Assembly (NCBI GenBank): GCA_019038625.1
Contig: JAHOYU010000110.1
Location: 6,209 to 70,208 of the forward strand
DNA from: Candidatus Latescibacterota bacterium
GTDB lineage: Bacteria > Krumholzibacteriota > Krumholzibacteriia > Krumholzibacteriales > Krumholzibacteriaceae
DNA length: 64,000 nt
Direction of reading: 5' to 3'
Translations under genes and position numbers: made by a program
Notes under the pieces: model-generated
Seen by the model: only the letters and a program-made list of their open reading frames with translations
Told to the model about the DNA's origin: nothing
Databases searched by the model: none
In this document: piece by piece, positions 6,152 through 64,000 of the stretch
Position numbering within the stretch: position 1 is the stretch's first letter
Layout of the letters: each line of letters starts with the position of its first letter

Positions 6152-6251
6152 TGACGCCTAGTCATCAATAAAGTTGAAGTGGGAATCTCTCATCCCCGAG
6201 AGATTCCCATCTTTTAAGACTACTTGTTATGTTATGATAGGAGTGAGAATT

Positions 6252-22163: not shown

Positions 22164-22451
22164 CTGTTTCCTTTCGTTCCGGTTGAGCGGACTGATGGCA
22201 GTATTTAAATGCTTCAAATTCAACAAGCATCGATCGATAAATAATACAGACACTACTCCTGTTGTTCAAGGATACTATAGTGTCTATTTTATAAATATCA
22301 GCGGGACAAAAGTTCCTGCAGGAAACAATGAATTCGACTCTTGAGGTCTATTCCTTGATTGTCAGGAAGAGACCGGTCGGTTCTTCTTGAAGTCATTCAA
22401 TAGCCGGGTTATATTCAATTTTCGCCGAACAATGGGAAGGAGACCCTTGAG

Positions 22452-28187: not shown

Positions 28188-28207
28188 CGAAGGAGAAAAG
28201 GCTTCCA

Positions 28208-29362: not shown

Positions 29363-30576
29363 AACAGCTTGTGCAGTTAATAGCAGGGGTTATTCTTTTG
29401 TCTACCGTTTTGTCCGGATGTTCCGGCAGAGACGGGAATCAGGATCTTTACATCTTCGAGGAACTTGAGACTGCTTCTTCTCTCGAAGATCCGTCCGGCA
29501 GGGTGGAGAGATTGAAGATATTCGCAGCTAACAATCCTGATCATCCAGCAAGATCAATAGCCTATTCAAGGATATTTGAGACTATGGTCGTCGACATGAA
29601 CGACGAAGACGGGTCTTTGGTATGGTTCGGTCAGGTAATGGAAAAGGAGAAGGAACCTTTTATCCGAGGCGACCTTCTATACAGGAAATTCGCCTTTCTG
29701 TGGGAAAAAGACAAAGAATCCGCGATTCTACTGGCCGAGCAGATACTGGCCGGGTCAGAGAGCGATTACCGTCTGCATCTGTACCTTTGTTACTATCTGA
29801 TGAGTGAGGAATCCAGCGATAAGTTAACAGAAAAGCTGTTCGAGAAACTGCAGGGATTGACCAGCAACGAATATAAATTAAAACACGCAAGATCAGTTTA
29901 TGGTGAGTTCCTCTTTGACCGGAATAGAGAGGATGAGGGCGTGGCTGTTTTGGCCAAAGCGGGAGATTATCCTTTCGCCAACGAAAAACTGGCCACGTAT
30001 CTCTGGGAAAAGGATATGCGGAAGGAGGCCATCGAGTCTTATATCATGTTTGTCGCTGGAGCGCCTGGTGCGAGAGAGCATGTAAATGTTGACAGTCTGT
30101 ACAGCCTCGTTTATCCGGACAGTAAGGATCTCAATGATCGGATCTCGGCGATGAGGATAATCGATGAGGGTGTGCTTCCCGATATGGATTTTTCCGATTT
30201 GAACGGAATGACTCACAAACTGTCGGAATATCGGGGCGATATACTCATAATCAGTGCATGGAGCCCTACCTGACCGCCTTGTATTGCGGAGTTGCCGCAA
30301 CTGGAAGAATTGAAGAAGTCCGAAAGTGAAAAAGGTTTCAAGCTCCTGCTTATCGATTCCAAAGGCATGGTGAAACGCAGCAGGGAGATACTCGAGGAAA
30401 AGAAAGTGACGATCCCTCTGTTGATAGATTCGAGGTTCTATTCGAGGAATGTCCTTACGACTATGTATACTCCGACTACGATCGTCATCGACAGGGAAGG
30501 CCGGTTGAGAGCACGTCTGGTCGGTGGTTCGAAAGATTTCGAGCAGGTTCTGATGGATATCGTCGAATCGTTGTGA
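29359..30576 (+). CDS. Candidate selenoprotein: a lipoprotein with a TlpA/redoxin-family thioredoxin-like domain containing an in-frame UGA (Sec) at 30271-30273 in a U-P-P-C redox motif.
   Basis: Two same-frame ORFs (29359-30273 and 30292-30576) are separated only by TGA. Read-through gives ...GDILIISAWSPT-U-PPCIAELPQLEELKK..., matching the redoxin consensus ([20 protein letters not shown]) with U at the first Cys. The downstream sequence has the rest of the fold (IPLLIDS..., PTTIVIDREGRL). A lipobox LSGC is present. A SECIS-like hairpin lies 10 nt downstream of the UGA. Confidence 0.6.
30284..30300 (+). promoter_or_regulatory. Candidate bacterial SECIS hairpin.
   Basis: A 6-bp stem (TTGCGG agttg CCGCAA) starts 10 nt after the UGA. 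The apical loop contains G-U 18-19 nt downstream of the UGA, within the range reported for bacterial SECIS elements. Confidence 0.45.
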
Positions 30577-48341: not shown

Positions 48342-50360
48342 TTACCTGAGTAGCACCATCTTGCGATTGATAGTCCCGGTGCCGGAAGTCAGCCTGTAGA
48401 AATAGACTCCCGAATTCACTTTCGAACCATCGTCCGCCAGGCCCTTCCATGACAGTGTATGATACCCTGCCGGGAAATATCCGCTGGCCAGCTTTCTGAC
48501 GAGTCTTCCATTTACATCGAAGATATCGAGCGTGATCCTGCCTTCTGCTTCCAGTCCGAATTCTATCGTGGTCACGGGATTGAAGGGATTGGGGATGTTC
48601 TGTCCGAGAAATGGCATCAGGGGCGCTTCATCCGAGCCGGTCAGGTTGAGTTCCACATCGCAGAGGATCCAGTGGTCCGGATCGATCTCGACCGATGTTA
48701 CCGGGTCGAAGGTAATGATTGCGAACGATTCCTGCGATTCGTCGATCCAGAGGATCGTATCGATGACCCCTGAGGTGGTAGTGATCCTCATGTCCACCGG
48801 CATCATATAGGGAATAGCCTGAGTCTGTGTTATCGCGCAGGAGAGATGAGTCTCTCCGCCCGCTTCGAATACATTCCAGGTGAGGGAATAGACAGGCCGG
48901 TCCTCCCGAGTCAGCCACTGGTCGAAGAACCATGACAGAGACGCGTCGTAATGGTCTTCGTATACCTGCCTCATGTCGTCGGTGTCGGCGTATGAGAATC
49001 TGTATCGGGAGTCTTCGAGATATGCCTGTGTCGCCGTGAAGAATGTGCCGTCTCCGAGGACATGTCTGAGCATGTGAAGTACCCACGCCCCCTTGTGATA
49101 GACGACAATGTTGAAATAATACCATGGGTCGTCATTATCAGGATCCCGCATCACCGGGCCGTCCCAGAGGTGAGGAGTATCTTTCGTCTCCATATAGCTT
49201 CGCAGTTTTACCGCACCCTCGATGTGTTCGAACCAGAGAGCTTCGCTGTAACTTGCCCAGCCCTCGTTGAGCCATATATTTACCCAGTCGCTGCATGTGA
49301 CCATATCCCCGAACCACTGGTGTGCCAGTTCATGTACCCATATATAATCGTATTTATGCGAGCCGAGTGTGAGGGCTGCTCCATAGCTGGTGAGGGTCTG
49401 GTGTTCCATCCCTCCCCCGATGGCACAGTGAGCGATACCGTACTTTTCATCGACAAATGGGTATAGGCCGAATATAGACGAAAAGAAGTCCAGAACAGGG
49501 ACCTGGATATTGAAATCCTCCGTGGCCTGAGCGATCTTGGACGGATAGACATAGTTTGTCACCATCATCGTCTCGCCCGGAGCGTATACCCACGGTTCTT
49601 CGAGGAGGACGTAATCGGAAGCCGTCACGCTGAAGAGATAATTTGCCATCGGGTAATTTTCTTTCCACTGAAAACGACGGTAAGGCGCCCCCCAATGGGT
49701 CGTATCGCTGACTCCGATAAACTCGCCGTTTGAGGTAGCTGTGAGAAGGGGATCTACCGCGAGCCTTATGTCGAACAGGGCCTTGTCGTCAGGATAGTCT
49801 TTGCAGGGGTACCATGTCCTTGCGCTCCAGGGCTCGCTGAGCGAATAGATCACCGGAGCCCCGTCGTACGATCTGAAGAATAGTCCGGGATGTGCCGCTC
49901 CTGCAGGATAGCCCTGATAATAGATATCGAGGCTGAATGGTTCGCCGGTGGCCAGAGGTCCCGGGAGTTCTATCTGGAGGATGCTTCCCCCGTTGACCCA
50001 GGACAGTTCGCCATATCCGGAAGCGGTGACCGACAGGATCTCAAGCACCGGGTCGGTGTCTATATCCATGGTCAGAAATCCATCCACGAGGCTTTCGAAT
50101 TCTATCCCGATGCGCCCTTCGACTCTCTGAAGAATATGGTCTATTGCTATATCGATATCGTATCGGATGACATCATACTCCAGTTGGCTGGGAGTAGGAT
50201 CGGGCATCATCAGCAACCCTCTCTCCATAGAGGCCGAGGCTCGTAAAAGATCCAACTGCTGGATGATATCTTCATGTATGATCTCGAACCGGTCCTGTGC
50301 TTCGGTGAGGGAGGGAGTCAGAACGGCCATCGACAGGAGAATGATTGCGAGGTTTCTCAT
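48342..50360 (-). CDS. M1 family zinc aminopeptidase with a T9SS C-terminal sorting domain.
   Basis: It has GGMEH (a GAMEN-like motif) and HELAHQWFGDMVT...(18)...NEGWASY (HEXXH-X18-E). The C-terminus (FLGQNIPNPFNPVTTIEF...IFDVNGRLVRKL...GVYFYRLTSGTGTINRKMVLLR) is a T9SS CTD. The start is taken at MRNLAIILLSMAV (signal peptide). Confidence 0.9.
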   Translation of the reverse strand: MRNLAIILLSMAVLTPSLTEAQDRFEIIHEDIIQQLDLLRASASMERGLLMMPDPTPSQLEYDVIRYDIDIAIDHILQRVEGRIGIEFESLVDGFLTMDIDTDPVLEILSVTASGYGELSWVNGGSILQIELPGPLATGEPFSLDIYYQGYPAGAAHPGLFFRSYDGAPVIYSLSEPWSARTWYPCKDYPDDKALFDIRLAVDPLLTATSNGEFIGVSDTTHWGAPYRRFQWKENYPMANYLFSVTASDYVLLEEPWVYAPGETMMVTNYVYPSKIAQATEDFNIQVPVLDFFSSIFGLYPFVDEKYGIAHCAIGGGMEHQTLTSYGAALTLGSHKYDYIWVHELAHQWFGDMVTCSDWVNIWLNEGWASYSEALWFEHIEGAVKLRSYMETKDTPHLWDGPVMRDPDNDDPWYYFNIVVYHKGAWVLHMLRHVLGDGTFFTATQAYLEDSRYRFSYADTDDMRQVYEDHYDASLSWFFDQWLTREDRPVYSLTWNVFEAGGETHLSCAITQTQAIPYMMPVDMRITTTSGVIDTILWIDESQESFAIITFDPVTSVEIDPDHWILCDVELNLTGSDEAPLMPFLGQNIPNPFNPVTTIEFGLEAEGRITLDIFDVNGRLVRKLASGYFPAGYHTLSWKGLADDGSKVNSGVYFYRLTSGTGTINRKMVLLR

Positions 50361-50512
50361 CGTAGTAATTCCTTCCATGACTATAAGTTGCACTACAATG
50401 ATAGCATATGACAGCTCTTCTGGCAAGGGAGCGCGTGATCACCCGTTCTCTGCTGATATCTCTTGCGTGCAAGGCTCTTCATCTGTAAAGTAATGGGAGA
50501 CAGGAAAGTACG

Positions 50513-52399
50513 ATGAAACAATACAAAGAGCATACATTCAAACCGGTTAAGATCATCCTTCCCGCTATTTTTGTAGTAGCGGCGGTAATCAGGGTCCTGT
50601 TCATAATTCAGCTCGAGAGATCCGATATCGGGGCGGTCCTGCCGCTGGATATGATGTTTTACCGGGAACTTGCCTCAAGGATATCTTCCGGGGCCGGTAT
50701 TCCCGGAGGGGCGATCTCGTTCAACCCGCTTTATCCGGTTTTTCTCGCCGCTGTCTACAAGCTGTTCGGCGATGCGATGATATGGGTCAGGATATTGCAG
50801 TCGATCACAGGCCTCCTGACAATAGCACTCATATATGCGGCAGGGAGAAGGTTTGCTCTCAATATCGATGACCAGAGGATCGATCCGCGGATCACAGGAC
50901 TGGTCGCTGCTTCCGTCTCGGCGCTGTATCCGCAATTCCTGCTGTACGAGGGCAGTCTTCTTGCTACAACTCTGGTGATCTTCATCTTTACAGCCTCATT
51001 CCTCCTGGCCCTGATCGTCGACAGGCCGATCGTCGATGGAAAGGTCCCCGTCATCGCCGGTCGAGAGGTCCCTCTCTGGATATGCTGTCTTCTGTTGGGA
51101 CTGCTCATTGGCGCTGGAACGTTAGGAAGGCCGAATATTTTCCTTCTTCTCGTGCCCGCGATTCCTCTCTGGCTCTATTTCCGTTCAGGGAGGCGTGCAA
51201 GAGGGTTGATCACAGGAATAGTATGCCTGGCCGGAGTAGTCACGATGCTTCTACCTCCTGTCATCTATAACGCGTCTCAGACAGGGCAGTTCGTGCCTGT
51301 ATCCACGCACGGAGGAATAAATTTCTATATTGGTAACAGGTCGGGGGCCACGGGCATATACAGCCCGCCTGAAGGAATGCGATCGGATATGAGGGGGCTG
51401 ATCGAGGATGCCAGAGTGGTCGCCGAGAGAGAATCGGGAACGAGCTTGACCGATTCCGAAGCCTCTGACTACTGGATGGCCCGGGCCAGACAGTCTATAT
51501 CCAGCGCCCCTGCCGCCTGGATGAGACTCCTCGGGAGGAAGCTGCTCCTTTTCTGGAACGGTACAGAAGTGTCCGACATAGTGGAGCTTTCGATATTCAA
51601 GCGGGAGTGTTCGACTCTCCATTCCGCCATAGTTCCTTTCAGCCTGATATCCGCGTTCGCCCTTCCAGGACTGATCCTTGTCTTTCTGTTGAGGAAAGGC
51701 AGGTGGGTGACCGGTATTTTTGCGGGCGCAGCCATAGCCTCTATCCTTCTCTTCTATATAAATGCCAGGTACCGTATACCTTCTGTTCCTGTCCTGATCG
51801 TTCTCGGTGCTGTCTTTCTGGTTTGGACCATCGGTACGCTGCGGGCGAGGGAATGGAAGAGGGGTGTGGTGGCAATCGCTTCTGTAGCCGCTGTTTTCCT
51901 CTTCATATCCAGTCGTGATCTGGTCTTTGTGGACAAGAGTGCCGCATATACTTTTCTTGGAAATCATTTCATGCAGAATGGAGAAATTGAAAAAGGGGAA
52001 AAGGCCTTTGCCGAAGCGTACAGACTCGCCCCGCGACTGGTGATGACCAATATTAATTACGGCAGGGTCCTGCTGCAAAAGGGAAAGCTGGAGGAATCCC
52101 GCTCGTTGTACGACCGGGCTTACAGGATACAACCTGATTTTCCCATGCTTGCCATCGAGTACGGTTCCCTTCTCGATCAGATGGGTATGAAGGAGGAGGC
52201 TGCAGCGATGTATCTGCGTGCCGTGGAACTGGGGCGCGACAGAGATACTCTGCTGGCCTGCCAGTTGCTTTCCCGTTCGGCTTACGAGGCGGGCAGGCTG
52301 GAAGAGTCGGCTTCCTGGATCAGAAAGGCACTCGAGATAGCGCCCGGGGACGAAAGGCTCAGGGGCCTTCTCCTGATGCTCGAACAGAAGGAACCTTAA
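50513..52399 (+). CDS. Polytopic membrane protein with a GT-C/PMT(GT39)/DUF2723-like N-terminal domain and C-terminal TPR repeats.
   Basis: The N-terminus has about 10 TM helices (IILPAIFVVAAVIRVLFII...). The C-terminal roughly 170 aa are TPR-like (NHFMQNGEIEKGEKAFAEAYRLAP...). Confidence 0.6.
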   Translation: MKQYKEHTFKPVKIILPAIFVVAAVIRVLFIIQLERSDIGAVLPLDMMFYRELASRISSGAGIPGGAISFNPLYPVFLAAVYKLFGDAMIWVRILQSITGLLTIALIYAAGRRFALNIDDQRIDPRITGLVAASVSALYPQFLLYEGSLLATTLVIFIFTASFLLALIVDRPIVDGKVPVIAGREVPLWICCLLLGLLIGAGTLGRPNIFLLLVPAIPLWLYFRSGRRARGLITGIVCLAGVVTMLLPPVIYNASQTGQFVPVSTHGGINFYIGNRSGATGIYSPPEGMRSDMRGLIEDARVVAERESGTSLTDSEASDYWMARARQSISSAPAAWMRLLGRKLLLFWNGTEVSDIVELSIFKRECSTLHSAIVPFSLISAFALPGLILVFLLRKGRWVTGIFAGAAIASILLFYINARYRIPSVPVLIVLGAVFLVWTIGTLRAREWKRGVVAIASVAAVFLFISSRDLVFVDKSAAYTFLGNHFMQNGEIEKGEKAFAEAYRLAPRLVMTNINYGRVLLQKGKLEESRSLYDRAYRIQPDFPMLAIEYGSLLDQMGMKEEAAAMYLRAVELGRDRDTLLACQLLSRSAYEAGRLEESASWIRKALEIAPGDERLRGLLLMLEQKEP

Positions 52400-52411
52400 A
52401 TCGTTTTAACC

Positions 52412-53632
52412 TTGCCGGGATCTGCGGACAGTGATAAAGTCCCGTTCACGGGAACATCCCGGGAAGGGCTTCTGCGACAGGATCTGAATATGCTTGCCAT
52501 CATATCTGTTATTCTCAGGCACAAGAAAACCGTTATCATCGTCACCCTGTCCGGCCTGGTCATCTCCGCAGTGATCAGTTTATTGATACCTCCGAAGTTT
52601 ATTGCAAGAGGCGCCTTTCTTCCCACTGGGGTCGAAAAGGAACTTACCGGTGGTGGTGATTTCTTTTCGGGCCTCGGATCTATCGGCGAGACCTACGCGA
52701 CTTTCGCCAGGGTAAAAAGGAATTATGTCATTGAATATATCGTCAGAAGCCGGAAGATGTGCGACCTCATCTCGAAGCGGTTTGACCTGGAATCGATCTA
52801 CCGGGTCGACGGAGCTGCCCGGGCGCACAAAAAACTGAGCGAACATACAGGGATGATCATACTGAACGAAGGCGTCCTCATAATCTCGTTCGAGGATTCG
52901 GACCCGGTCAGGGCAAGGGACATTGTTTCGGCGTATTTTGAGTTTATAGACAAGCTTCTTATGGAATTTGCGATGGAAAATGCCAAGTCGAAACGTGATT
53001 TTCTCGAAGCTGAAAAAGCCAGGCGGGAGAAGATGATCGAGGACATGGACGACAGGCTCGCCCGGTTTATGAAGGAGCGCGGTGTCTTCGAAGTGCAGCA
53101 GCAGGCCAGGGCCGCATACAGGGTCATAGCGGGACTCGCCGCCCGTGAAACAATGATAGAAATAGAAAAGACGATGCTCGAGATGACGATGAAGGAGACA
53201 AACCCGGAACTGGAAAGACTGGAACTCGAACTTGACGCGGTTAGAGCGAGAGTCTCTGATCTTGTCGAGGGTGACGGTGGCGGAGAGCTTTTCCCGCCTC
53301 TTGACGAACTTCAGAATGTCTCATCGGAGTATCTTGGCATGATGAGTGAAAGGATCGTACATGAATTTGCCCTCGCATTCGTAAATCTCAAGCTGGAGGA
53401 TGCCAGGATTGCCGAGGACAGCGATGTTAGTGTTATCAGGATAATCGATCCACCGGTTGTGCCCGAACTGAGGTCGTGGCCGAAGAGAAAGCAGATCGTA
53501 ATTGTCGGGACAGCGGCGGCCTTTTTCTGGATATGTTTCATATTGTTACTGAGACAGCAGATAAAGGCCGGACGATTCTCCGACACGAAAGATGAATCCG
53601 GGGCGGACGCCTCTGTTCCGGATCCCCTGTAA
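52412..53632 (+). CDS. Wzz/PCP-like polysaccharide chain-length determinant family protein.
   Basis: It has an N-terminal TM (IIVTLSGLVISAVISLLIPPKF), a long coiled-coil periplasmic region and a C-terminal TM (IVIVGTAAAFFWICFILLL). The start is uncertain (TTG at 52412 or ATG at 52490). Confidence 0.6.
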   Translation: MPGSADSDKVPFTGTSREGLLRQDLNMLAIISVILRHKKTVIIVTLSGLVISAVISLLIPPKFIARGAFLPTGVEKELTGGGDFFSGLGSIGETYATFARVKRNYVIEYIVRSRKMCDLISKRFDLESIYRVDGAARAHKKLSEHTGMIILNEGVLIISFEDSDPVRARDIVSAYFEFIDKLLMEFAMENAKSKRDFLEAEKARREKMIEDMDDRLARFMKERGVFEVQQQARAAYRVIAGLAARETMIEIEKTMLEMTMKETNPELERLELELDAVRARVSDLVEGDGGGELFPPLDELQNVSSEYLGMMSERIVHEFALAFVNLKLEDARIAEDSDVSVIRIIDPPVVPELRSWPKRKQIVIVGTAAAFFWICFILLLRQQIKAGRFSDTKDESGADASVPDPL

Positions 53633-53647
53633 TGGGAGAGGGAAAAG

Positions 53648-55033
53648 TTGAGATTCGAGATCTTCGGTGAACCGGTTCATAAGGTCAGGCTGGCTCTTGC
53701 ACTCTTTGTATTGACCGTATTCGCCGCCGCCGTAATTATTTTGATGCCGCGTGGGCTGGTCAGGCTCGCTTTTGTCGGTATCTTCACTCTTCCGATCCTG
53801 ATCCTGTTTTTCGACCACCCGGAGTGGACGCTCTACGTCCTTCTCGGCCTGTTGTTTTCCAACATCTTTATCTTTTTTCATTTTCCACTCGTGCGCATGG
53901 CGGCCCTGTTTCTAATATCTTCCTGGGGCCTGTCCGTGTTAATGGGAAGGAGGATCGTCATTCATGACAGGAGGATGTTTTTCCTCACTACAGCTTTCCT
54001 CATCCTATCCTTTCAGTCGATGATCTTCGCGAGGAATATCGCCAGTTCTATTAATCGTATGGACAATTTTCTGACTACTCTCGTCACTCTTTTTTTAATC
54101 ATACAATTCTCGAGGTCCAGGAACGAATTCTTCAAAGTATTGTTCGTGATATCCCTTGGCTGTCTGGTAAGTAATTTTCTGCCTTTTCTGGTGCCCCCTC
54201 CTGAGAAGTACGCAGACCTGTCATTAATATGGGGTCAGGCGGTATTGAGGTATGAAGGATATCTCAGGGAACCGAATATGTTTGCGTTTTCCCTGACCTT
54301 TCTTATCCCGATCCTGTTCATCCTTTTTGCCAGGCTAAAAAGGCCGTGGTTCGCGAGACCGGTTGTCGCTGTCGCGACGGTAGGAACGATATTCGTAATG
54401 GCGCTGAGTTTTTCAAGAGGAGCGTTCGTCGCTCTGGCAGCCATGTTCCTTACGCTCCTTATCGTGGAACGCCGTAACAGATCGATTCTGTTTGCCGGGC
54501 TGGCCATGATAGTGGCTGGAGCGCTGTTGGCTCCGGCAGCATACTGGGAACGGATAGCGTCTCTCGTGGAAATCGGGAATAGTATGACTGAGGACACCGC
54601 TATCATTTCGCGGATATATACAATGAAGATCGCCCTCATCCTTGGGATCAGGAACCCTTTGTTTGGGGTCGGATTAGAGAATTTTCTGTTTCATGCCTCA
54701 AGGTTCACCTCGTTCGGAAATTTTGTGCATAACAGCATCCTGCAGGTCTTTTCTGATCTGGGGATTCCAGCGCTCATCGTCTATTTCTGGATAATGATCT
54801 ACAACCTGAGAGTGACCAGGGGGTTGATGAATCTCGGGGGAGATCCTGAAGCTGCCCAGATAGGAAGATTGTTGTTCGTGCAGCAGGTAGGGGTGCTTAT
54901 AAATTCGATGTTCATCCCTGTGTCCCACCACATGATCCTCTGGTTGACGATGTTACTTCCCACGATGGCCTGGTACGCATGTACAGGGAGACAATTCACT
55001 CCTCTGAAAAAATCGCTGCATCAAAGAAATTAA
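53648..55033 (+). CDS. O-antigen ligase/polymerase-like (Wzy_C family) polytopic membrane protein.
   Basis: It has about 10-12 TM helices. A Wzy_C-like segment is present (FSRGAFVALAAMFLTLLIV). The start is uncertain (TTG). Confidence 0.5.
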   Translation: MRFEIFGEPVHKVRLALALFVLTVFAAAVIILMPRGLVRLAFVGIFTLPILILFFDHPEWTLYVLLGLLFSNIFIFFHFPLVRMAALFLISSWGLSVLMGRRIVIHDRRMFFLTTAFLILSFQSMIFARNIASSINRMDNFLTTLVTLFLIIQFSRSRNEFFKVLFVISLGCLVSNFLPFLVPPPEKYADLSLIWGQAVLRYEGYLREPNMFAFSLTFLIPILFILFARLKRPWFARPVVAVATVGTIFVMALSFSRGAFVALAAMFLTLLIVERRNRSILFAGLAMIVAGALLAPAAYWERIASLVEIGNSMTEDTAIISRIYTMKIALILGIRNPLFGVGLENFLFHASRFTSFGNFVHNSILQVFSDLGIPALIVYFWIMIYNLRVTRGLMNLGGDPEAAQIGRLLFVQQVGVLINSMFIPVSHHMILWLTMLLPTMAWYACTGRQFTPLKKSLHQRN

Positions 55034-55096
55034 CGGTCTGAGCGGGAGTCAGAGTAAACGAGGCTGAAACTGTTAAGGGAACCATCGAGATCAAGG

Positions 55097-56038
55097 CTAG
55101 AACTGGTAGCTGAGCGATAGTCTGGTCTGCCTGCCAAACGCGTCTTCAGGGTCAAAAGTGAATGAGAGGGCTATATCTGTGGCCGCCAGGCTTGTGAGAA
55201 GTCCGAAACTCGTTATCGTCCGGGAATAATTTACCAGTCTCGCATCGATACCGCCAAGGATTGACAAGGTGCCTTCGACGATCACTATCTCGGAACCGAG
55301 AAGGACCCTGTTCATTTCTCCGGCTTTCGTTACTATGTCTCCCTCGACCGATACGCGACCGAAAAGGTCTTCCAGTGACAGTGCGAGATTGATCGAAGAG
55401 TCAAGCTCTTCATCGATCTCCGGATAATGTATAATGCTGCTGGTATTCCTGGCGACCAGTCCGAACCATAAGTTGCGATACAGTCGAGTCGTCCATCCGA
55501 AATCATATGCCATCCCCCAGGAATCGGCATCGTCAAGATCGGTCCAGCTTCTCATGAATCTGACGGTAGCTCCGATGCTGTTGAAATGATTAAGGCTGAA
55601 TGCCATCGAGAATCCGGCCGTTCCTTCGTTCCAGGCCGATCCACCAGCCAGTTTCAACCCCAGATGGGATATCGAAACGGCGGCAGCCAGCCTTTTGACC
55701 TCTATTGTTCCATCGGGCGACGTTCTGGTGTCCATGAAGCCGGTACCGACTGTTATAATGCTGTAAAGGTTGTCAAGGCCGGGGACCGGCCTCGTCACAC
55801 CTGCTGTCAATCTCGTCGAGCGAAGGAAAACCAGATTGGCGGGATTGTAATATGCTGCCCCGTCGTCCCTGGCGAGAAGGGTGGCAGCTCCGCCGAGCGC
55901 TTCACCCCGAGCGTCCCAACCCATCGGGAGAAATGTTCCGCCTCGGGAGCCCTCGGTCGCCGATACCATAACTGAAAACAATGGCACCAGGACAGCTGCG
56001 ATAATGAATGAAGTTATTTTTCTTTTACAGGTCATCAC
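55097..56038 (-). CDS. Putative outer-membrane beta-barrel protein, possibly T9SS-associated (PorQ/PorP-like; tentative).
   Basis: It has a signal peptide and alternating amphipathic beta-strand pattern. The C-terminus ends in ...LSLSYQF, an aromatic residue typical of OMPs. It lies immediately upstream of a T9SS-CTD Ig-like protein gene. Confidence 0.4.
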   Translation of the reverse strand: MMTCKRKITSFIIAAVLVPLFSVMVSATEGSRGGTFLPMGWDARGEALGGAATLLARDDGAAYYNPANLVFLRSTRLTAGVTRPVPGLDNLYSIITVGTGFMDTRTSPDGTIEVKRLAAAVSISHLGLKLAGGSAWNEGTAGFSMAFSLNHFNSIGATVRFMRSWTDLDDADSWGMAYDFGWTTRLYRNLWFGLVARNTSSIIHYPEIDEELDSSINLALSLEDLFGRVSVEGDIVTKAGEMNRVLLGSEIVIVEGTLSILGGIDARLVNYSRTITSFGLLTSLAATDIALSFTFDPEDAFGRQTRLSLSYQF

Positions 56039-56040
56039 AG

Positions 56041-57627
56041 TTATTTCACCACTGCTATAAAGTTCTTCTCTATCGTTTTGGATTCTCCGGAATGTATCGT
56101 CAATAACATAAGATATGCACCGTTTCTTACGGTCTCACCGTCGTCGTTGAGCAAGTCCCACTCGATCTCGTAAGTCGAGGATATGGACCAGTCTCTGATC
56201 GTCCTGACCTTTTCGCCTCCGAGATCGTATATATCGATCCCGACTCCGCTGGCCGCAGACCCGGTCACTATCTGGAATATATCAGGGCCACGGAAGACCT
56301 CGGGATAGGATATCCCCGTCCCGACAGAGTATGTTACCTCAAGGATCTTCGAACTCCCGCTTTCATTGCCTGCTACATCTCTGGCGATGACCCAGATCCT
56401 GTTCTGTCCGATGCCCAGTTCTACAGTGGGGGGCATAAAATATATAATAGTCGTGTCGGAGGGCGTATTTTCGTATGAACTGAAAATGACCAGGCTGTCT
56501 ACGTCTTCATCAAACTCCAGTTCCAACTCTATCTGAGAAGTCAGTACCGTCCCCGGCCTGTTCAATATCAGGGGTGATGCCGGCGAAGTCCTGTCCAGAG
56601 TGAATGTGAGGGACAAATAACTGAGCTGATTGTAATTGTCACTGCATTTTACATTCAATGTATATTGATTCTCGAATCGCGACACAGTCCCGTTTACTGT
56701 GTCGGGGACATCGAATCTCCAGTAAAGGGTGTCTGCCTGGTACCATGAACTGTCCGGGGCCATGTAATCACTCTCGTAATAAACGTCTTCCGTGTCATTC
56801 TGTCCCCAGGCCAGTATAAGGGATCCGATTTGTATTCCAGCGGAGTCCCGGCAGTAACCTGTTATTTCGAGTGGTACGGTCCTGGTCTCAGCTTCGATCC
56901 CGGTAAGGATGATGATCTCGGGGGATTCTGTGTCTATCTCGACCGCGCCCGAAGCTGTGGCCTTATTTCCTGCTACATCTGTGATATCGATCCCAATCGA
57001 CTGGAGACCTGGAAGAGTGGAAACGGGCGGCAGCCATTCGTAAAGATATTCGCCGTCAGCTGTCACTTCGAGAGCAGTAGTCCACAAAGTTTCCTCTGGA
57101 TCGGTGATCGTTATAGATGTTGCCGAACCTGTCTCAAACGAGGAGACAGTATAATAGATCGATACGGTCGAGGAGTCCGTGGGGAATCCGGGAGAAAAGA
57201 CTCCCGGCTCGATCCTGTCAATATTCACCGAAGGCGGAGTAAGGTCGACAACTATCGTCCTCTGCTGGTACTCCCCAGTGCCTCCGCTGTATTCGTAGAG
57301 TCGCAACAGATACTCGCCCTCCGGCAGCAGTACGCCCTCATGGTCACGGCCGTCCCAGACGGCGGAATACTGTCCCGCAGCCAATCCAGTTTCCAGGTAG
57401 ACGGTATCCAGCACTTCCGTCATCGCCAGGTTCTCGATCGTGACCAGGAGGGTGTCGACCCCGCCTGCGAGTATCAGAGACGCGATCATTGAATCCTTCA
57501 CTCCGTCGTCGTTTGGTGATATCGAGGGAAAGTTGATGATCAGAGTTACCTGACCAGCTTCCGCCGGAGCAGAGAAAGCCGGGAGGATCAGGAACAGGAC
57601 CAGTATGTTTATAATCCACAGGCGCAA
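56041..57627 (-). CDS. Secreted Ig-like/FlgD-Ig-like repeat surface protein with a T9SS C-terminal sorting domain.
   Basis: It has a signal peptide and an N-terminal INFPSISPNDDGVKDS motif. The C-terminus (GIDIYDLGGEKVRTI...EWDLLNDDGETVRNGAYLMLLTIHSGESKTIEKNFIAVVK) is homologous to the other CTDs in the window. Confidence 0.65.
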   Translation of the reverse strand: MRLWIINILVLFLILPAFSAPAEAGQVTLIINFPSISPNDDGVKDSMIASLILAGGVDTLLVTIENLAMTEVLDTVYLETGLAAGQYSAVWDGRDHEGVLLPEGEYLLRLYEYSGGTGEYQQRTIVVDLTPPSVNIDRIEPGVFSPGFPTDSSTVSIYYTVSSFETGSATSITITDPEETLWTTALEVTADGEYLYEWLPPVSTLPGLQSIGIDITDVAGNKATASGAVEIDTESPEIIILTGIEAETRTVPLEITGYCRDSAGIQIGSLILAWGQNDTEDVYYESDYMAPDSSWYQADTLYWRFDVPDTVNGTVSRFENQYTLNVKCSDNYNQLSYLSLTFTLDRTSPASPLILNRPGTVLTSQIELELEFDEDVDSLVIFSSYENTPSDTTIIYFMPPTVELGIGQNRIWVIARDVAGNESGSSKILEVTYSVGTGISYPEVFRGPDIFQIVTGSAASGVGIDIYDLGGEKVRTIRDWSISSTYEIEWDLLNDDGETVRNGAYLMLLTIHSGESKTIEKNFIAVVK

Positions 57628-57957
57628 GAAACACTTCCCTTGGTTAAATCTTCAAACACCTCTGTATTATATGTGTCATCTTCCCGGCCAGTCAACATCT
57701 AAACTATGATCAGGACTCCGGTAATAAAACAAGTTGCAAGTTGCAGGAACCGTATTCCTGTGATAGGATCAAAGGGGTCCAATGTAAAATCTGTACGGAA
57801 AGAGAGTGTGATCTGCCGTTGTTCCGGTTCTGCCTGGAGGTGATCAGCAATTTCTTCGTCGAAGGGTAAGAAGGCCGGAAAGAAGAGTCAGAATTCTTCT
57901 CAGGATGGTATTTCATCAGCCCTTGCCGCCGGGTACCTGATTTTTCTTCTCATCCAT

Positions 57958-60114
57958 TTGATTCCCCTCATGTCGGCGAGCCAGACCTTATGGGGAATCG
58001 ATCAATGGAGATATATTCCTGCCCCGTTTCTGTTCATACTGATCGTCTTCGGGGTCCTTCCCCTGATTCCATCGGTTCGGAGTACTCTTGCAGGCATGGT
58101 GTCGAAAGCCGTCCGGCCTGAAAAGAGAGAAACGACCCTTCGGGGACGTGCGATCCCTGTCCTCCTGGCAATTGTTTCCGTTGCTCTGATCTTCTGGTTG
58201 TTCCGGCAGAAGACTCATTTCCTCGGCGATGGTTATCTCTGGATAAAGTTTCTCGAGTCCGGAGATTTCAGCAGGTATTGGGATCTGACAGCTCTTTGCC
58301 TGATATATAATGGTATTCACCGTTTTCTCAACATCATATATCCCTTCGGCGATGTTGGTATGCCAGTTGTCGCCACAGGGATCAGTATCTCCTCCGGCCT
58401 GATCTTCCTGATATTCGCCTGGAAGAGCGCCAGGGTTCTTTTCACATCGATCAACAAAACTCTCTTTATCTTTCTGGCTGTCCTGTCGTCTGGTTCGATC
58501 ATGCTCTTTTTCGGATATATCGAAGCCTATCCTCCGGTAGCGCTGGCCGCGATGATATATATTTATTATGGTCTTCTCTTTCTTCGCGGGCGTACCAGTC
58601 TGCTAGCCCCTGCTGCGGCCCTCCTGCTCGCCCTCCTGCTGCATCCCTCGATGGCCGCTCTTTTTCCCGGCCTTTTGATCCTGTGCTATCTGAATAGGGG
58701 GAAAAGACCCGGCTGGAGAAGATATTTCCTGGTCCTCACAACGTCGGCAGCCGGGTGTTTTATCCTACTCTACATATTCCAGCAGTCAGGTATTTTCCCG
58801 GGTTTTTTCAACGAGAGTTTTTTGCCTCTTTTCGATGGGAGTCATCTCAACAGGGTCCCATACCCGGTTCTGTCAAAGGGAAGTGCGGCCGACCTTCTGG
58901 GCGAGATCTTGCTGGTCTGCCCGGTCGTCGTTCTTGTGTCTGCCGTATTTTTCCGGAAGGGGAAGATGGAGGAAAAGGGTAGATCTGGCAGGAAGGGCAA
59001 ATCGGGCGCAGAGGATCGATCAGGCACTGATGGACCGTCTGCCGAGATCCTGTTTCTATTGACTGTTTCGGTATTTTTTGTACTCGAGTTCATGGTGACA
59101 AATAAATTGATCGGGGCAAGCAGGGACTGGGATATTTTTGCCTCGATGGCCCTGCCGATGTCGATGATGACTGCATTGCTTCTTCTTCATTATTTCAGAG
59201 ACAGAGTTGCCGAGCTTATCGTCTTCACATTCTTCATCATGATCCTTCATACAGCAACCTGGATAGGTATCAACGCCTCGGAAGAGGCCTCCCTCGACCG
59301 TTTTTCAGATCTGATCGAAAACTACAGCTGGAGCGATTACGCACGGGGCTACGCGAACGACGAGCTGGCCACCTTTTATCTCGACAGGGGAGATGAATCG
59401 CGGGCGCTGGATTTTTCGAGAAAGTCGATAAAGGCCGATCCTGGGAATATCAGGTATCTGTATAACGCAGCGACAAGACATATGATCTGCAACAGGCATG
59501 ATGAGACGATCAGGCTCTACAGGAGAGTCCTGGAGAAGAATCCCGATTATCTGGAAGCAAGGCTCAATCTCGGTACTCTTTTCTTCAACCTGGACAGGCT
59601 GGATGAGGCAGGTAGCGAGTTTTTGGATGCGATCCGGCTGGATTCGACATCGGCGATCGGACACGAGAAACTTGCGCATATCTGCCTTCGAAAGGGTATT
59701 TTTGGCCGTGCTGTGGGTCATTTCGAGAAATACCTGTCGATCGAACCTGAAGATGTCGATGTACGTTTCGAGTTGGCGATGCTTCTCGACCGTCTCGACG
59801 ATTCCGATGGGGCGCTTCGGCAGCTAAACCGGGTCCTTCAATTGCGCAGGGATGACGTCAGTGTCATGAACAACATCGGGGTCATCCACTGCAAGAGGAG
59901 AGAGTACTCCGACGCTGTCCTGATCTTCGACAAGGCGCTTCAGCTCAACCCCGACCAACCATCGATCCACGGGAACCTCGCCAGGGTCCATTATCTTGAG
60001 GGCTATTATGAGATGGCATGGGAACATGTCTTTAAGGCGGAAAGGCTCGGCGGAGTCGTTCCGCCCGACCTTCTCTCCAGTCTTGAGGCAGTTATGGATC
60101 GTCCTGCAAACTGA
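57958..60114 (+). CDS. Polytopic membrane protein with C-terminal TPR repeats, a paralogous architecture to the 50513 and 61911 genes.
   Basis: The N-terminal roughly 420 aa have about 12 TM helices. The C-terminal roughly 280 aa have about 7 TPR repeats (DPGNIRYLYNAATRHM..., NPDYLEARLNLGTLFF...). Confidence 0.6.
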   Translation: MIPLMSASQTLWGIDQWRYIPAPFLFILIVFGVLPLIPSVRSTLAGMVSKAVRPEKRETTLRGRAIPVLLAIVSVALIFWLFRQKTHFLGDGYLWIKFLESGDFSRYWDLTALCLIYNGIHRFLNIIYPFGDVGMPVVATGISISSGLIFLIFAWKSARVLFTSINKTLFIFLAVLSSGSIMLFFGYIEAYPPVALAAMIYIYYGLLFLRGRTSLLAPAAALLLALLLHPSMAALFPGLLILCYLNRGKRPGWRRYFLVLTTSAAGCFILLYIFQQSGIFPGFFNESFLPLFDGSHLNRVPYPVLSKGSAADLLGEILLVCPVVVLVSAVFFRKGKMEEKGRSGRKGKSGAEDRSGTDGPSAEILFLLTVSVFFVLEFMVTNKLIGASRDWDIFASMALPMSMMTALLLLHYFRDRVAELIVFTFFIMILHTATWIGINASEEASLDRFSDLIENYSWSDYARGYANDELATFYLDRGDESRALDFSRKSIKADPGNIRYLYNAATRHMICNRHDETIRLYRRVLEKNPDYLEARLNLGTLFFNLDRLDEAGSEFLDAIRLDSTSAIGHEKLAHICLRKGIFGRAVGHFEKYLSIEPEDVDVRFELAMLLDRLDDSDGALRQLNRVLQLRRDDVSVMNNIGVIHCKRREYSDAVLIFDKALQLNPDQPSIHGNLARVHYLEGYYEMAWEHVFKAERLGGVVPPDLLSSLEAVMDRPAN

Positions 60115-60242
60115 CAATGACCGTTAAGTTTTTCCCTTACAACTCTCTTCTTGCTTGAGGTGGGGGCATGTCTTATAGTGCATCCGGTTGTCAGATCTGG
60201 ATCATTTGTGGTCCAGAACTTTTGGGTTGACCGAATTGGAGG

Positions 60243-61910
60243 TTGAACTTGGCTCTGGATATGACGTTCCAGATCGTTGGAGGGTTGGGTTTCTTTCTTT
60301 TTGGCATCAAGGTCATGTCGGAGGGACTCAGAAGGGTCTCGAGTGACAAGCTCAAGAACATCCTGAATCTACTTACCCGTAACCGGATACTGGCCCTTTT
60401 TGTAGGGACTGGCGTCACGGCCCTTATCCAGAGCAGCAGTGCGATGACAGTCATGGTCGTGGGATTCGCTAACGCTGGCCTTCTTACTCTCAAACAAGCT
60501 ATCCCGGTAGTACTGGGAGCGAATATTGGAACCACCTTTACAGCCTGGCTGGTCAGTTTCCTGGCTGTCTTCAAGATAACTCACTATGCTCTCCCCGCAG
60601 TGGGCCTCGGTTTCTTCATGATGCTGATGGAGAAAAAGCCCGGCGTAAAACAATGGGGCGAGGTCCTTTTCGGGTTCGGCGTATTGTTTGTCGGAATCGG
60701 GTTCATGAAGGATGCCTTCGAACCACTTGAGAGCAGCCAGCATGTGATGGACGTCATGGTCAATTTCAGCAAGTATCCGATTCTCGGAGTCCTGGTGGGA
60801 ACTGTGATAACGATGATCCTCCAGAGTAGCTCCGCAACGATCGCCCTCGTTCAGCTCCTTGCTTTCAAGGGGCTTATAGATTTCCCATCGACTATTCCCA
60901 TCATCCTCGGGGACAACATCGGGACGACGATTACCGCCCAGATAGCGACAATAGGAGGGACTACCGCTGCCAAGCGGGTAGCCTGGGCTCACACGCTTTT
61001 CAATGTCTTCGGAACATTATATATGCTGGTATTCCTCTATCTGAGACTATACGGCCGTTTTATCGAGAATCTCGTGCCGGGGCCGCTCACCAGTAGTAAT
61101 GTCATGCTTCACATAGCCCTTTCCCATTCAATATTCAATGTGTTCAACGCGGTACTATTCCTTCCCTTTGTCGTCTGGCTCCAGAAGGTGGTCGAGAAAC
61201 TGGTCAAACCGAAAGGTGATGTCGTCAGCGTTGAACCTCAGTTCCTTGAAAAGAATCTACTGGAGACTCCCGTGCTGGCTCTCCAGCAGGGCAGAAGAGA
61301 GATAATCAGGATGCTCTCGCTCGCGCGTTCGGCCTTCAAGAATGCTTATGAGATGTTTGTGGACGGAAAGATGGAACTTGGCAAAAAGGTGAACAGGAGG
61401 GAAGAAGCAGTAGACAATCTCCAGGCGGAGATCACTCGTTACCTCATCAGTATCTCGATGGAGAACCTCGAACAGGAGGAAGCGGAAAAGATTCCCGTGT
61501 TCATCCACTCGGTGAACGATATTGAGCGTATTGCGGATCATGCGGAGAATGTCGCGGAGCTTGCTCAAAGAAAATTCGAGCAGAAACTTCAGTTGACTGA
61601 TAAGGCCAGCAGCGAACTGGAAAAGATGGTCGAACTCACGATGGGAATGCTCGATGATGTGGCAAAGGGCCTCGAAACCAACGACATGAAATATGCCAAG
61701 AGAGCTCTTAAGAAGGAAGACCAGATCAACCACCTGCAGGTCAATTACAGGAACAGCCATGTCAAAAGGCTCAATGAGGGCAGCTGTGATATATATGCCG
61801 GACTGATCTTCCTCGACTGCGTAGATTACATGGAGAAGATCGGTGATCATCTGGCCAACATAGCCCAGGGGCTGCTCGGAGGATTCCGCTGGGATGATCA
61901 ACGGGGATGA
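60243..61910 (+). CDS. Na+/phosphate cotransporter (type II Na/Pi cotransporter-related, with a PhoU-like C-terminal domain).
   Basis: It has two Na/Pi cotransporter repeats (QSSSAMTVMVVGFANAGLL... and LQSSSATIALVQLLA...). The C-terminus is a PhoU-like helical domain. The start is TTG at 60243 or ATG at 60261. Confidence 0.85.
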   Translation: MNLALDMTFQIVGGLGFFLFGIKVMSEGLRRVSSDKLKNILNLLTRNRILALFVGTGVTALIQSSSAMTVMVVGFANAGLLTLKQAIPVVLGANIGTTFTAWLVSFLAVFKITHYALPAVGLGFFMMLMEKKPGVKQWGEVLFGFGVLFVGIGFMKDAFEPLESSQHVMDVMVNFSKYPILGVLVGTVITMILQSSSATIALVQLLAFKGLIDFPSTIPIILGDNIGTTITAQIATIGGTTAAKRVAWAHTLFNVFGTLYMLVFLYLRLYGRFIENLVPGPLTSSNVMLHIALSHSIFNVFNAVLFLPFVVWLQKVVEKLVKPKGDVVSVEPQFLEKNLLETPVLALQQGRREIIRMLSLARSAFKNAYEMFVDGKMELGKKVNRREEAVDNLQAEITRYLISISMENLEQEEAEKIPVFIHSVNDIERIADHAENVAELAQRKFEQKLQLTDKASSELEKMVELTMGMLDDVAKGLETNDMKYAKRALKKEDQINHLQVNYRNSHVKRLNEGSCDIYAGLIFLDCVDYMEKIGDHLANIAQGLLGGFRWDDQRG

Positions 61911-64000
61911 TCAGGGTAGACTTTCGGTAGTCGATTTTTTCTCTGCCTGAAACTTTTCCCATACCCTGTCCAGTATATCCTGGGGCGCCGGAGCATTTGG
62001 GTTCAGTTCCACACTTCTGACAAGATGTCTGTATGCGTCTTCATAGTTCCCGCGGGCTTCCTGGACGATTCCCATATTGAAGTGCAGTTTCGGGGACATA
62101 TCGTTGTCGCGGAGAGCTCCGTCCAGGATTGTCCACGCTTCCTCGAAATCTCCCTCGTCCATAAAGACATTCGCAAGGTTGTTCTTTGCGACCCAGTTGC
62201 GCGGCAGCATACTGAGAACTCTGTAATAGTTCTGTTTCGCCTCTTCGAACATCTTGTCCTGATGGAATTTGGCTCCCTGATTCAGGATTGCCGACGCAAG
62301 GCTCCTGATGTTCTGTTCCCTTCGGGGTTCGAGTGAAAGAACCTTGTTGTAGGCGGTTATCGCCACACCGAATTCTCCCGCCCTGTTCGCGGCGAAACCG
62401 AGCCTGTTCCAGTAATGGATGCTGGAAGAATCGTAAGAGGTGAGAATATTGAATTCGTTTATTGCGTCGCTGAACCACCTTTTCTCTATGTAGGCTTCGC
62501 CCAGCTCTTCTCTGTAGCTCACGTTTTCCGGTTCGATCCTGAGAGATCTGATGAAATACGAGATCGCGTCGACGTAATCTTCGTTTTTCATATCTGCTTT
62601 CCCAAGGTAGAACCATGTGACCGCGTCATCCCCAGCTTTTTCCACCGATGTTTCCAGCCAGGTCGCGGCTGCCTCGTAGTCTTCCTTTTCGTACGCCCTG
62701 ATCCCGGTGATCTTTTCGGCCTGTCCGGGAGCGAGAGGAAGGGAGGCGAGGCGGGCTACCCCTCTGTCCTGAGAGCTGGATACGATTACAAGCGCTGCAG
62801 AATGAATCGATCCCAGGACCACGAGTAACAGGATCGACGAGGCGAATATTTTTATCGTTGCCGAACGCCTGTGGATACTGAAAAGAGCCAGAACGGTGAA
62901 AGCAGGCCCCGTTACTGCTATCGCGTCCCACCCGAGGCCGCTCTCGATCCTGTGAGAAAGGATAAGGATCATTACCAGGGCAGAGATGACGAGAGCAGAA
63001 AGAAATCTTTCGACAGTCTCTGTTTCCCTTTTTCCCTTATTCTTTTTCAGTCCAGGGACGAAAACTATCAGCGAAGCGATACTCGCGGGACCTATGAGGA
63101 GCAGGGCGTTGCCCCAGTCCCCAAACATTCTTCCGGTCGTGCCGGTCGAGATCGAGGCCACCGCACTGGAACATGAGGACAAGATGAACCGCATCGGGGA
63201 GATGCCACCTGGAATCGTCCGTATAATGATCTCGATGGCTACTGCCGACAGGACAAGTATAATTGCAGAGACAAGGGCCTCTTTACGGCTTGAACTTCTT
63301 CGAAAGGCGATTATCATCAATGCCGCGAGTCCGACCACAAGATAGGCAGCCGATAGATGAGAGGCTACCGCAAGGATGAATAGCGAGACAGGGATGAACA
63401 GAGTCGATCTGCCCTCTATGAACCGTATTGAAGTTATAATAAAAAGAGTAGAAAATATAATGGCTGGCGGGATCAGGCCGCTTCCTCCGAAAAAGACGAC
63501 GATAAAACCACTCGAGATCACAAATAGTGTAGACAGGATCATTGTTCGCTCAGGTGTCAGCCGGGCCGGGTCATTTTCTCCATCGATCGGAGATCCATTG
63601 ATATTGTCGGTGTCATTGGGCCCCCTCCCTTTCGTCATCGCGAGAGCGGCAGCTTTCGCGCACGGGATGAATAAAAGCCCCGACAGGATACTGACGAGGC
63701 CGGTCACCATTCGAGGAGTCCAGAAGAACAGGGGGTTGAACAGTCTGAAGACGGCTTGATTAACAGCTGTGGCCAATGGGGCCCCCGGGCTCACCCACCT
63801 GCCGCTTCCGACGAGAGCCGCAGCCTCATTCAGTTCCCCCCACAAAAGGTGACCCTGCCTCAGGAGGAATATCGATCCGAATATCGCCAGATAGAATATA
63901 ATCCGGGCCCATAGAGGATGTTTTTTTTCAGTGGTGAACAGTCTCAGTACCCTGTTCCGCGTTCCGGGGATCAGAAGAAGTAGAGAGAGGCCGATAATGA
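61911..64000 (-). CDS. Polytopic membrane protein with C-terminal TPR repeats (GT-C/DUF2723-like); its 5' end extends beyond the window.
   Basis: The reading frame stays open on the minus strand from 61911 to the window end. A multi-TM N-terminal region is followed by TPR repeats, with C-terminus ...VWEKFQAEKKSTTESLP. The TTG at 63845 reported in the ORF track is internal. Confidence 0.6.
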   Translation of the reverse strand, partial: IIGLSLLLLIPGTRNRVLRLFTTEKKHPLWARIIFYLAIFGSIFLLRQGHLLWGELNEAAALVGSGRWVSPGAPLATAVNQAVFRLFNPLFFWTPRMVTGLVSILSGLLFIPCAKAAALAMTKGRGPNDTDNINGSPIDGENDPARLTPERTMILSTLFVISSGFIVVFFGGSGLIPPAIIFSTLFIITSIRFIEGRSTLFIPVSLFILAVASHLSAAYLVVGLAALMIIAFRRSSSRKEALVSAIILVLSAVAIEIIIRTIPGGISPMRFILSSCSSAVASISTGTTGRMFGDWGNALLLIGPASIASLIVFVPGLKKNKGKRETETVERFLSALVISALVMILILSHRIESGLGWDAIAVTGPAFTVLALFSIHRRSATIKIFASSILLLVVLGSIHSAALVIVSSSQDRGVARLASLPLAPGQAEKITGIRAYEKEDYEAAATWLETSVEKAGDDAVTWFYLGKADMKNEDYVDAISYFIRSLRIEPENVSYREELGEAYIEKRWFSDAINEFNILTSYDSSSIHYWNRLGFAANRAGEFGVAITAYNKVLSLEPRREQNIRSLASAILNQGAKFHQDKMFEEAKQNYYRVLSMLPRNWVAKNNLANVFMDEGDFEEAWTILDGALRDNDMSPKLHFNMGIVQEARGNYEDAYRHLVRSVELNPNAPAPQDILDRVWEKFQAEKKSTTESLP

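Follow-up and report, generated by a model that had tools for sequence, protein, structure and literature searches.

Eukaryotic TMTC proteins are O-mannosyltransferases of the GT-C/PMT clan with 11 transmembrane (TM) helices, a cytoplasmic N-terminus, and luminal tetratricopeptide repeats (TPRs); both this architecture and the catalytic role that the TM7–TM8 loop plays have been described (PMC7801869). O-antigen ligases influence how type IX secretion system (T9SS) cargo is anchored (PMC8729774, PMC11611037), and the O-oligosaccharyltransferase (O-OTase) of Bacteroidota had still not been identified in 2022 (PMC8729774). In bacteria, TPR-tailed GT-C enzymes abound but essentially lack assigned functions, and our literature search returned no characterized bacterial enzyme that combines GT-C and TPRs and no identified Bacteroidota O-OTase. 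Here we analyze a 64-kb stretch of DNA from Candidatus Latescibacterota bacterium (assembly GCA_019038625.1, contig JAHOYU010000110.1, positions 6,209 to 70,208 of the forward strand), hereafter the window; all coordinates are positions within it, and the region from 48.3 to 64.0 kb was examined closely. An initial annotation had described three polytopic membrane proteins with C-terminal TPRs in this region (A, F, and H below) as paralogous in architecture and, with neighboring glycan genes, as a candidate GT-C-type glycosylation system. With moderate confidence we favor a different explanation, in which the region holds two separate things, a gene cassette (A-B-C) of a Wzx/Wzy-type glycan pathway and a stand-alone membrane protein family represented by F and H, the functions of both being predicted. 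The genes concerned are the following.

50513–52399, + strand: A, a putative TMTC/ArnT-like GT-C glycosyltransferase (628 amino acids [aa]; PMT_2 signal, TPRs at residues 476–624).
52412–53632, + strand: B, a predicted polysaccharide co-polymerase of the Wzz/KpsE type (406 aa; sub-threshold Wzz and GNVR, PDB 8tsh_E).
53648–55033, + strand: C, a Wzy_C-domain membrane protein, predicted polymerase or ligase (461 aa; Wzy_C above cut-off).
57958–60114 as called, likely 57850–60114, + strand: F, a member of a family with 13 TM helices and TPRs and no annotation, putatively GT-C-like (718 aa as called).
61911–64000, − strand: H, a divergent paralog of F, 5′-truncated by the window end (738 aa at full length, P0200).

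A, B, and C share one direction, with gaps of 12 nt between A and B and 15 nt between B and C. In B, TM helices at approximately residues 38–67 and 360–382 flank a coiled/helical periplasmic domain; the Pfam models Wzz (22.6 bits) and GNVR (25.4 bits) both score slightly under their cut-offs, and matches were obtained to the NCBIfam models TIGR01010 (2.4e-12) and TIGR03007 (5e-11) and to a “capsular biosynthesis protein” in the PDB (8tsh_E, 8e-8). On these profile matches B is assigned as a polysaccharide co-polymerase (PCP). C scores 64.9 bits on Wzy_C (PF04932), for which the cut-off is 31.7 (E = 9.3e-18), and also matches TIGR03097 (3.2e-15), and the Wzz/PCP-like and Wzy_C genes that the initial annotation saw interleaved with the membrane-TPR genes are thereby confirmed.

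A membrane-domain profile of A, searched against 185,579 species genomes, gave 78 loci, the neighbors in which were identified as six-frame open reading frames (ORFs) searched with the window proteins. Forty-four of these loci are of the Krumholzibacteriota type (A match E < 1e-100; A 38–85% identical). B lies directly 3′ of A in 26 of 38 loci with enough sequence, B and C together lie 3′ of A in 22 of 32, and a Wzx flippase gene (Polysacc_synt) is found directly 5′ of A in at least 10. The arrangement (Wzx)-A-PCP-Wzy_C is a conserved cassette across Krumholzibacteriota, and for A the proposed link of a membrane-TPR gene to Wzz-like and Wzy_C genes holds throughout this group. At E ≤ 1, no homolog of Wzx is encoded in the window itself. 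The close relatives of A all carry the label Krumholzibacteriota or Krumholzibacteriia, and the window most likely derives from that phylum.

Protein A has 11 TM helices, a number on which hydropathy and the secondary structure of its AlphaFold2 (AF2) model (pLDDT 87) agree, followed by an array of 3–4 TPRs (TPR_2, E = 2.7e-15). By the positive-inside rule its topology is N-in/C-out, with the Lys-rich N-terminus in the cytoplasm and the TPRs in the periplasm. Of 14 relatives of A with 42–53% identity, 13 have a PMT_2 match, the strongest at 2e-8, and a Glyco_transf_22 match is seen in one. A word-indexed search retrieved 179 relatives, nearly all from Krumholzibacteriota and neighboring candidate phyla, several of which carry a precomputed PMT_2 match or are called “glycosyltransferase family 39” or “ArnT-like” by their sources. 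The first periplasmic loop comprises the 52 residues after TM1 and contains Asp46, which is invariant in 32 sequences. Tyr50, the N71-P72-x-Y74-P75 motif, Glu146, and R206-P207-N208 are likewise invariant in this set, as is the block H266-G-G-I-N-x-Y-x-G-N (including Asn270), which opens a 118-residue loop after TM7. Membership of A in the PMT_2/GT-C clan, with a periplasmic TPR tail, is supported by these features, and in this respect the earlier GT-C assignment stands for A. The likeness to DUF2723/TMEM260 or PMT that accompanied it is not supported: neither DUF2723 (PF11028) nor PMT (PF02366) matches A, F, H, or the scanned relatives at E ≤ 1, and MIR, like PMT, has no match in A, F, or H.

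Several observations weigh against this interpretation of the cassette. In the window copy of A, the PMT_2 match to the membrane domain is sub-threshold (E = 0.015, 16 bits versus a cut-off of 26.1). Searches of PDB sequences with A (phmmer and profile hmmsearch) returned no match at E ≤ 10, and hhalign gave no alignment of the A profile with E. coli ArnT; since A, a known PMT_2 relative, serves here as a positive control, its failure implies that these tests lack power. A Foldseek search of the PDB with the full-length A model was dominated by the TPR array, the top 50 matches all being TPR proteins. For C, a phmmer search of the PDB was empty, and its Wzy_C match leaves polymerase, ligase, or O-OTase as the possible activity. 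The cassette is also not obligatory, since 9 of 38 A-type loci hold paralogous copies of A without B-C, some of them in tandem, and in 3 loci A is followed directly by the gene pair D-E (described below) without B-C.

Under the explanation that we favor, A-B-C would be the half of a Wzx/Wzy-type pathway for a surface glycan that operates in the membrane and periplasm, a pathway conserved in Krumholzibacteriota, and the ancestral cassette would also have carried the Wzx flippase that is missing at this site in the source genome. By family analogy, A would use a polyprenyl-phosphate-sugar as donor and transfer one monosaccharide on the periplasmic side; the sugar may go to the glycan, while this is growing or once it is finished, or to whatever accepts that glycan. 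We infer, by likeness to TMTC, that Asp46 is the catalytic Asp of this candidate activity. The TPR tail may dock A onto the acceptor or onto the PCP/Wzy_C machinery, in which B would act as the co-polymerase and C as the polymerase or ligase. The Wzx-(GT-C/TPR)-PCP-Wzy_C partnership offers a concrete, testable context for one GT-C/TPR enzyme.

The composition of the cassette also bears on a different assignment of roles. En-bloc transferases such as PglB/STT3 also belong to the GT-C class, and a set comprising a flippase, a co-polymerase, and one Wzy_C protein leaves one of the polymerase and ligase functions unassigned. A might then be the en-bloc transferase (ligase or O-OTase) that moves the finished polymer from undecaprenyl diphosphate to an acceptor, protein or lipid, selected by its TPRs, with C as the Wzy polymerase and B as its co-polymerase. 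We regard this as very unlikely. A has no match to STT3 or PglB and instead matches PMT_2, and the characterized ArnT, PMT, and TMTC enzymes use monophosphate-linked monosaccharide donors; moreover, a second Wzy_C gene may lie outside the 64-kb window.

The genes flanking the cassette, and those between F and H, place it in a longer conserved order.

48342–50426, − strand: an M1 aminopeptidase with a T9SS C-terminal domain (Peptidase_M1 and Por_Secre_tail), a divergent neighbor of A for which no functional part is claimed.
55097–56038, − strand: D, a PorV/PorQ-like outer-membrane beta-barrel, the partner downstream of E (313 aa; NF033709 below cut-off).
56041–57627, − strand: E, a surface protein with several Ig-like domains and a putative T9SS C-terminal domain (528 aa; FlgD_ig, Big_13, CHU_C).
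60243–61910, + strand: G, a Na/Pi cotransporter fused to PhoU, between F and H.

E and D share one direction, opposite to that of A-B-C, and are separated by 2 nt. E contains FlgD_ig (7e-16, 58 bits), Big_13 (7.6e-6), and CHU_C (9.7e-6, 26.1 bits versus a cut-off of 27) domains, and D matches the PorV/PorQ family model NF033709 (6.3e-11, 42 bits versus a cut-off of 90). The domain and barrel-family matches suggest that this pair may be T9SS Ig-like cargo with an outer-membrane partner, as described earlier; the CHU_C score of E and the score of D stay below their cut-offs. The T9SS connection of the region rests only on the adjacency of E and D. G and H are convergent, with stops at 61910 and 61911 and zero bases between them (61908–61913).

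Related loci repeat the order M1, (Wzx) A B C, D E, Na/Pi, H. In 17 of 23 loci the M1 peptidase lies upstream of A, synteny between D-E and A is kept in 12 of 20 long loci, and H is present in all 5 loci that reach past the Na/Pi gene. The presence of a Na/Pi transporter inside this order suggests that the neighborhood is an inherited gene order rather than one pathway, and the proximity of A, D-E, Na/Pi, and H reflects conserved gene order in the class, with no demonstrated common pathway. None of the 44 related loci contains F. The proposal that A, F, and H form one glycosylation system was not supported by the comparison, F being missing from every locus and H being separated from the rest by the phosphate transporter, a gene that the initial annotation had omitted. 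A-like proteins with 28–33% identity occur in KSB1, Planctomycetota, Acidobacteriota, Nitrospinota, Myxococcota, and Latescibacterota, and in the six-frame ORF search their loci show none of the window-type neighbors. To our knowledge, Planctomycetota, Acidobacteriota, Nitrospinota, and Myxococcota lack a T9SS. The earlier suggestion that the membrane-TPR proteins glycosylate T9SS cargo or attach A-LPS finds no support in these results.

These comparisons bear on whether A might be a protein O-glycosyltransferase of the TMTC/PMT type that acts in the periplasm on Ser/Thr of secreted proteins, for example the Ig-like protein E, its link to PCP and Wzy_C being incidental or a matter of lipid-carrier sharing. 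A shares its architecture with the TMTCs, which carry luminal TPRs and for which Ig-like cadherin domains serve as acceptors (PMC7801869, PMC10214176); the synteny of E-D with A, the 3 loci in which the pair directly follows A, and the missing Bacteroidota O-OTase as of 2022 (PMC8729774) would also fit. However, the operon of A comprises B and C but leaves out E-D, a pair encoded on the other strand, and the A-like proteins of other phyla are found without these neighbors. Synteny alone is moreover a weak argument, given that an unrelated Na/Pi transporter belongs to the conserved order too. We therefore judge this alternative unlikely, and retain the assignment of A to a glycan pathway with B and C.

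F was also considered as part of the cassette, and was rejected on synteny (0 of 44 loci, with a heparinase II/III gene in its place in the closest relative). At its site, F is a lineage-specific insertion. In the closest relative, GCA_023131975.1 (A 85% identical), a heparinase II/III-like gene (857–881 aa; L002/L003, 17285–19930) occupies the place of F between E and the Na/Pi gene, marking this spot as a variable insertion point. In the distant relative CP070727.1, a 781-aa protein with a weak match to Dpy19, a GT-C C-mannosyltransferase, is encoded between the Wzy_C gene and D-E (L004, 14603–16948), another GT-C-like gene at the same variable spot.

The three membrane-TPR genes were found where the initial annotation had placed them, with 11 TM helices in A, 12–13 in F, and at least 10 in H. 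By BLASTP, F and H are 24% identical over 567 columns (E = 3e-26), in an alignment that covers the membrane domain and the TPRs, whereas A aligns with F and with H in the TPRs only. This pattern indicates two families rather than three paralogs, only F and H being detectably homologous in the membrane domain. The frame of H is open to the window end (base 63998), with at least 10 TM helices within the window in addition to TPRs; it is 5′-truncated, as noted earlier, and the full-length protein, P0200, is encoded on the same 89,792-bp public contig as F (P0001). That contig is labeled “Bacteroidales bacterium,” a label that, against the close relatives of A and the syntenic loci, all of them Krumholzibacteriia/Krumholzibacteriota metagenome-assembled genomes, is probably a binning or classification error.

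As called, F has 12 TM helices and TPRs at approximately residues 460–712 (TPR_2, 2.7e-21; AF2 model pLDDT 88), and by the positive-inside rule its N-terminus is cytoplasmic and its TPR array periplasmic. The called start is TTG 57958, and the public annotation begins at ATG 57970 (714 aa). The frame is open upstream from 57844, and the stretch 57844–57957, which reads ...KGKKAGKKSQNSSQDGISSALAAGYLIFLLIHLIPLMSASQTLWGIDQW, encodes a Lys-rich tail and a TM helix that matches the first helix of the family. No ATG, GTG, or TTG occurs in frame within 57844–57957, and a GGAGG (57836–57840) is followed 9 nt later by an ATT at 57850. Taken together, the upstream helix, the lack of a standard start, and the GGAGG-ATT arrangement point to ATT 57850 as the likely start. 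Translation from there would give 754 aa and probably 13 TM helices, the first of which the public 714-aa annotation would lack.

Outside the TPRs, neither F nor H matches a Pfam or NCBIfam model. A profile of 18 F-family membrane domains was searched against representative clusters (50% identity) of 1.84 billion proteins; with E ≤ 1e-3 as the limit it matched at least 5,012 clusters, and with E ≤ 1e-30 it matched 2,377. The F family is thus large, and no model in Pfam or NCBIfam covers its membrane domain. Its few named members, which come from KSB1, Latescibacterota, and Eisenbacteria as well as the source metagenome-assembled genome, are annotated only as TPR or hypothetical proteins. Elsewhere, F homologs occur in unrelated contexts; one adjoins a weak PMT_2 gene and one lies in a tandem array. 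The array (L085, 8001–17974, on a 591-kb contig) combines tandem F-family genes with short TPR/TM fragments (657, 128, 383, 116, 609, 301 aa, and more), which suggests local amplification and decay of the family in some genomes.

Conserved motifs of the F family are LWGxDQW, HFLGDG (Gly90 invariant, Asp91 at least 90% conserved), FFGYxExY (with Glu189), His229, and SRDWD (Trp391 and Asp392 invariant), and by topology all of the conserved polar motifs are periplasmic. In the AF2 model, HFLGDG marks the start of a 53-residue periplasmic loop with short helices at 91–101 and 108–127, similar in length to the 52-residue loop of A. PMT_2 matches 3 of 18 family members, and P0034 scores 26.7 bits against the gathering score of 26.1; the matched region corresponds to the helices equivalent to TM2–TM7 of A. 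An hhalign comparison of the F family (175 domains) with the A family (121 domains) gave a collinear alignment of F 59–432 with A 6–463. With a score of 29.8 and P = 0.007 it ranked first among six comparisons; the five controls, among the A, F, Wzy_C, and Na/Pi families, gave P = 0.1–0.77. These results are suggestive of GT-C membership for the F/H family. An acidic residue in a long periplasmic loop is found in all three proteins or their families, as Asp46 in the first such loop of A, Asp91 in the F family, and Glu/Asp in the H orthologs. The initial annotation had regarded an Asp/Glu-containing first periplasmic loop as typical of GT-C enzymes, and the absence that it named as counter-evidence is not seen.

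The same comparisons include results that count against a GT-C fold for F and H. The hhalign probability for F with A is only 1–6% (5.6% with deep alignments), and sub-clade tests gave P = 0.009–0.04 against A and 0.026–0.26 against Wzy_C, a small margin. The F profile had no match among PDB sequences at E ≤ 10 and no hhalign alignment with E. coli ArnT, tests in which the A control fails too. A Foldseek search of the PDB and BFVD with the full-length F model was again dominated by the TPR array (top 50 all TPR/Sel1).

F and H might, on these grounds, be TPR-bearing membrane scaffolds or have some other polytopic fold, and not be glycosyltransferases at all, with the PMT_2 matches reflecting hydrophobic-composition noise. 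The low hhalign probability, the empty searches of PDB sequences, the lack of a Pfam match to the membrane domains of F and H in the window, and the loss of two conserved acidic motifs in H (below) are in keeping with such a view. Nevertheless, one family member passes the PMT_2 gathering score with a match in register with that of A, and the alignment of F with A is collinear over the full length. The 53-residue loop, with its two short helices and conserved Asp, mirrors the first extracellular loop (EL1) of GT-C enzymes, and the polar motifs of the family all face the periplasm. We thus consider a scaffold role possible but rather doubtful.

We prefer to view the F/H family as probably GT-C-like, that is, as lipid-linked-sugar transferases that may act on protein or glycan acceptors. 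H may differ in this regard. When H and its six positional orthologs are aligned to the family HMM, they retain G(E/D) at the HFLGDG position as well as His229, but FFGYxExY is replaced by FFGGGG and SRDWD by SGLxW, so that Glu189 and Arg-Asp 389–390 are missing. An apparent loss of the loop Asp from H in a first MAFFT alignment was rejected, as the family-HMM alignment shows Glu/Asp in the H orthologs. Having lost two of the three acidic motifs of the family, the positionally conserved H subfamily may have a changed or non-catalytic role.

A broader reading, which we put forward as speculative and think unlikely to hold in full, is that F and H belong to an unrecognized branch of lipid-linked-sugar transferases that select protein acceptors through their periplasmic TPRs, and that, together with A, they represent TPR-guided periplasmic glycosylation as a major unstudied route in uncultured phyla of the FCB group. 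If true, T9SS cargo might be among the substrates of such a route, the adjacent Ig-like protein E being one example. The thousands of proteins with 13 TM helices and TPRs but no model for the membrane domain represent a gap in glycosyltransferase catalogs, and defining the F/H family would improve the annotation of many candidate-phylum genomes.

Other genes of the window lie further from the cassette. The GT4, DegT aminotransferase, and GT genes upstream (25843–29362), which had been counted with the membrane-TPR genes, are 21 kb from A, with approximately 14 unrelated genes in between (among them rhomboid, RNase J-like, TldD/PmbA, M28 and M1 peptidase, LiaF, Crp, Hcp, LepA, and HemN-like genes), and were rejected as part of the same locus on this distance and the intervening housekeeping genes. 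The glycan set as a whole (25843–30273) comprises the GT4 gene, whose best NCBIfam match is a PEP-CTERM/XrtA-associated GT (4e-34), the DegT aminotransferase (5.5e-119), a TuaH-like GT (7.6e-22), and a 332-aa ORF with no family match.

The window is unusually rich in secreted peptidases (19005–22253, 34234–36183, 39072–41270, and 48342–50426). T9SS C-terminal sorting domains are found in the M28 and M1 peptidases and in a 649-aa protein of unclassified domain; the S9 peptidase in the window has no sorting-domain match. A 1348-aa Peptidase_C25 protein (6945–10991, + strand) matches the T9SS sortase PorU model at 3.7e-49, below the equivalog cut-off. At the window start, which truncates it at the 5′ end, a second protein (2–3640, + strand) has a partial C25 match, FG-GAP repeats, and a T9SS type A C-terminal domain, and four small ORFs with no family match (4159–6815) lie between the two C25 proteins.

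Compared with known systems, TMEM260/DUF2723 (GT117) proteins resemble A, F, and H in layout only, a polytopic membrane domain followed by TPR-like repeats. ArnT (GT83, PF02366/PF13231), the lipid A Ara4N transferase, is closer to A, with which it shares the PMT_2 clan signal, a periplasm-facing orientation, and a presumed polyprenyl-phosphate-sugar donor, and after which some A relatives are named in their sources. In contrast to A, ArnT has 13 TM helices and a soluble C-terminal domain in place of the TPRs, the E. coli enzyme aligns with neither the A nor the F profile, and no arn operon genes are present here. The setting of A is that of the Wzx/Wzy pathways (Wzx, Wzy, Wzz/PCP, and WaaL), with B as the predicted PCP, C as the Wzy_C protein, and relatives that have Wzx directly upstream. 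Unlike the usual Wzx/Wzy locus, the cassette has a GT-C/TPR gene between Wzx and PCP, and no initiating transferase or cytoplasmic GT genes are adjacent in the window. In its architecture, A differs from TMTC in lacking a DUF1736 match, in having 3–4 TPRs only, in being bacterial, and in being operonic with PCP and Wzy_C genes. It resembles TMTC1–4 in its 11 TM helices and cytoplasmic N-terminus, in the acidic residue in its first extracytoplasmic loop and the long conserved loop after TM7, and in its PMT_2-type signal and non-cytoplasmic C-terminal TPRs.

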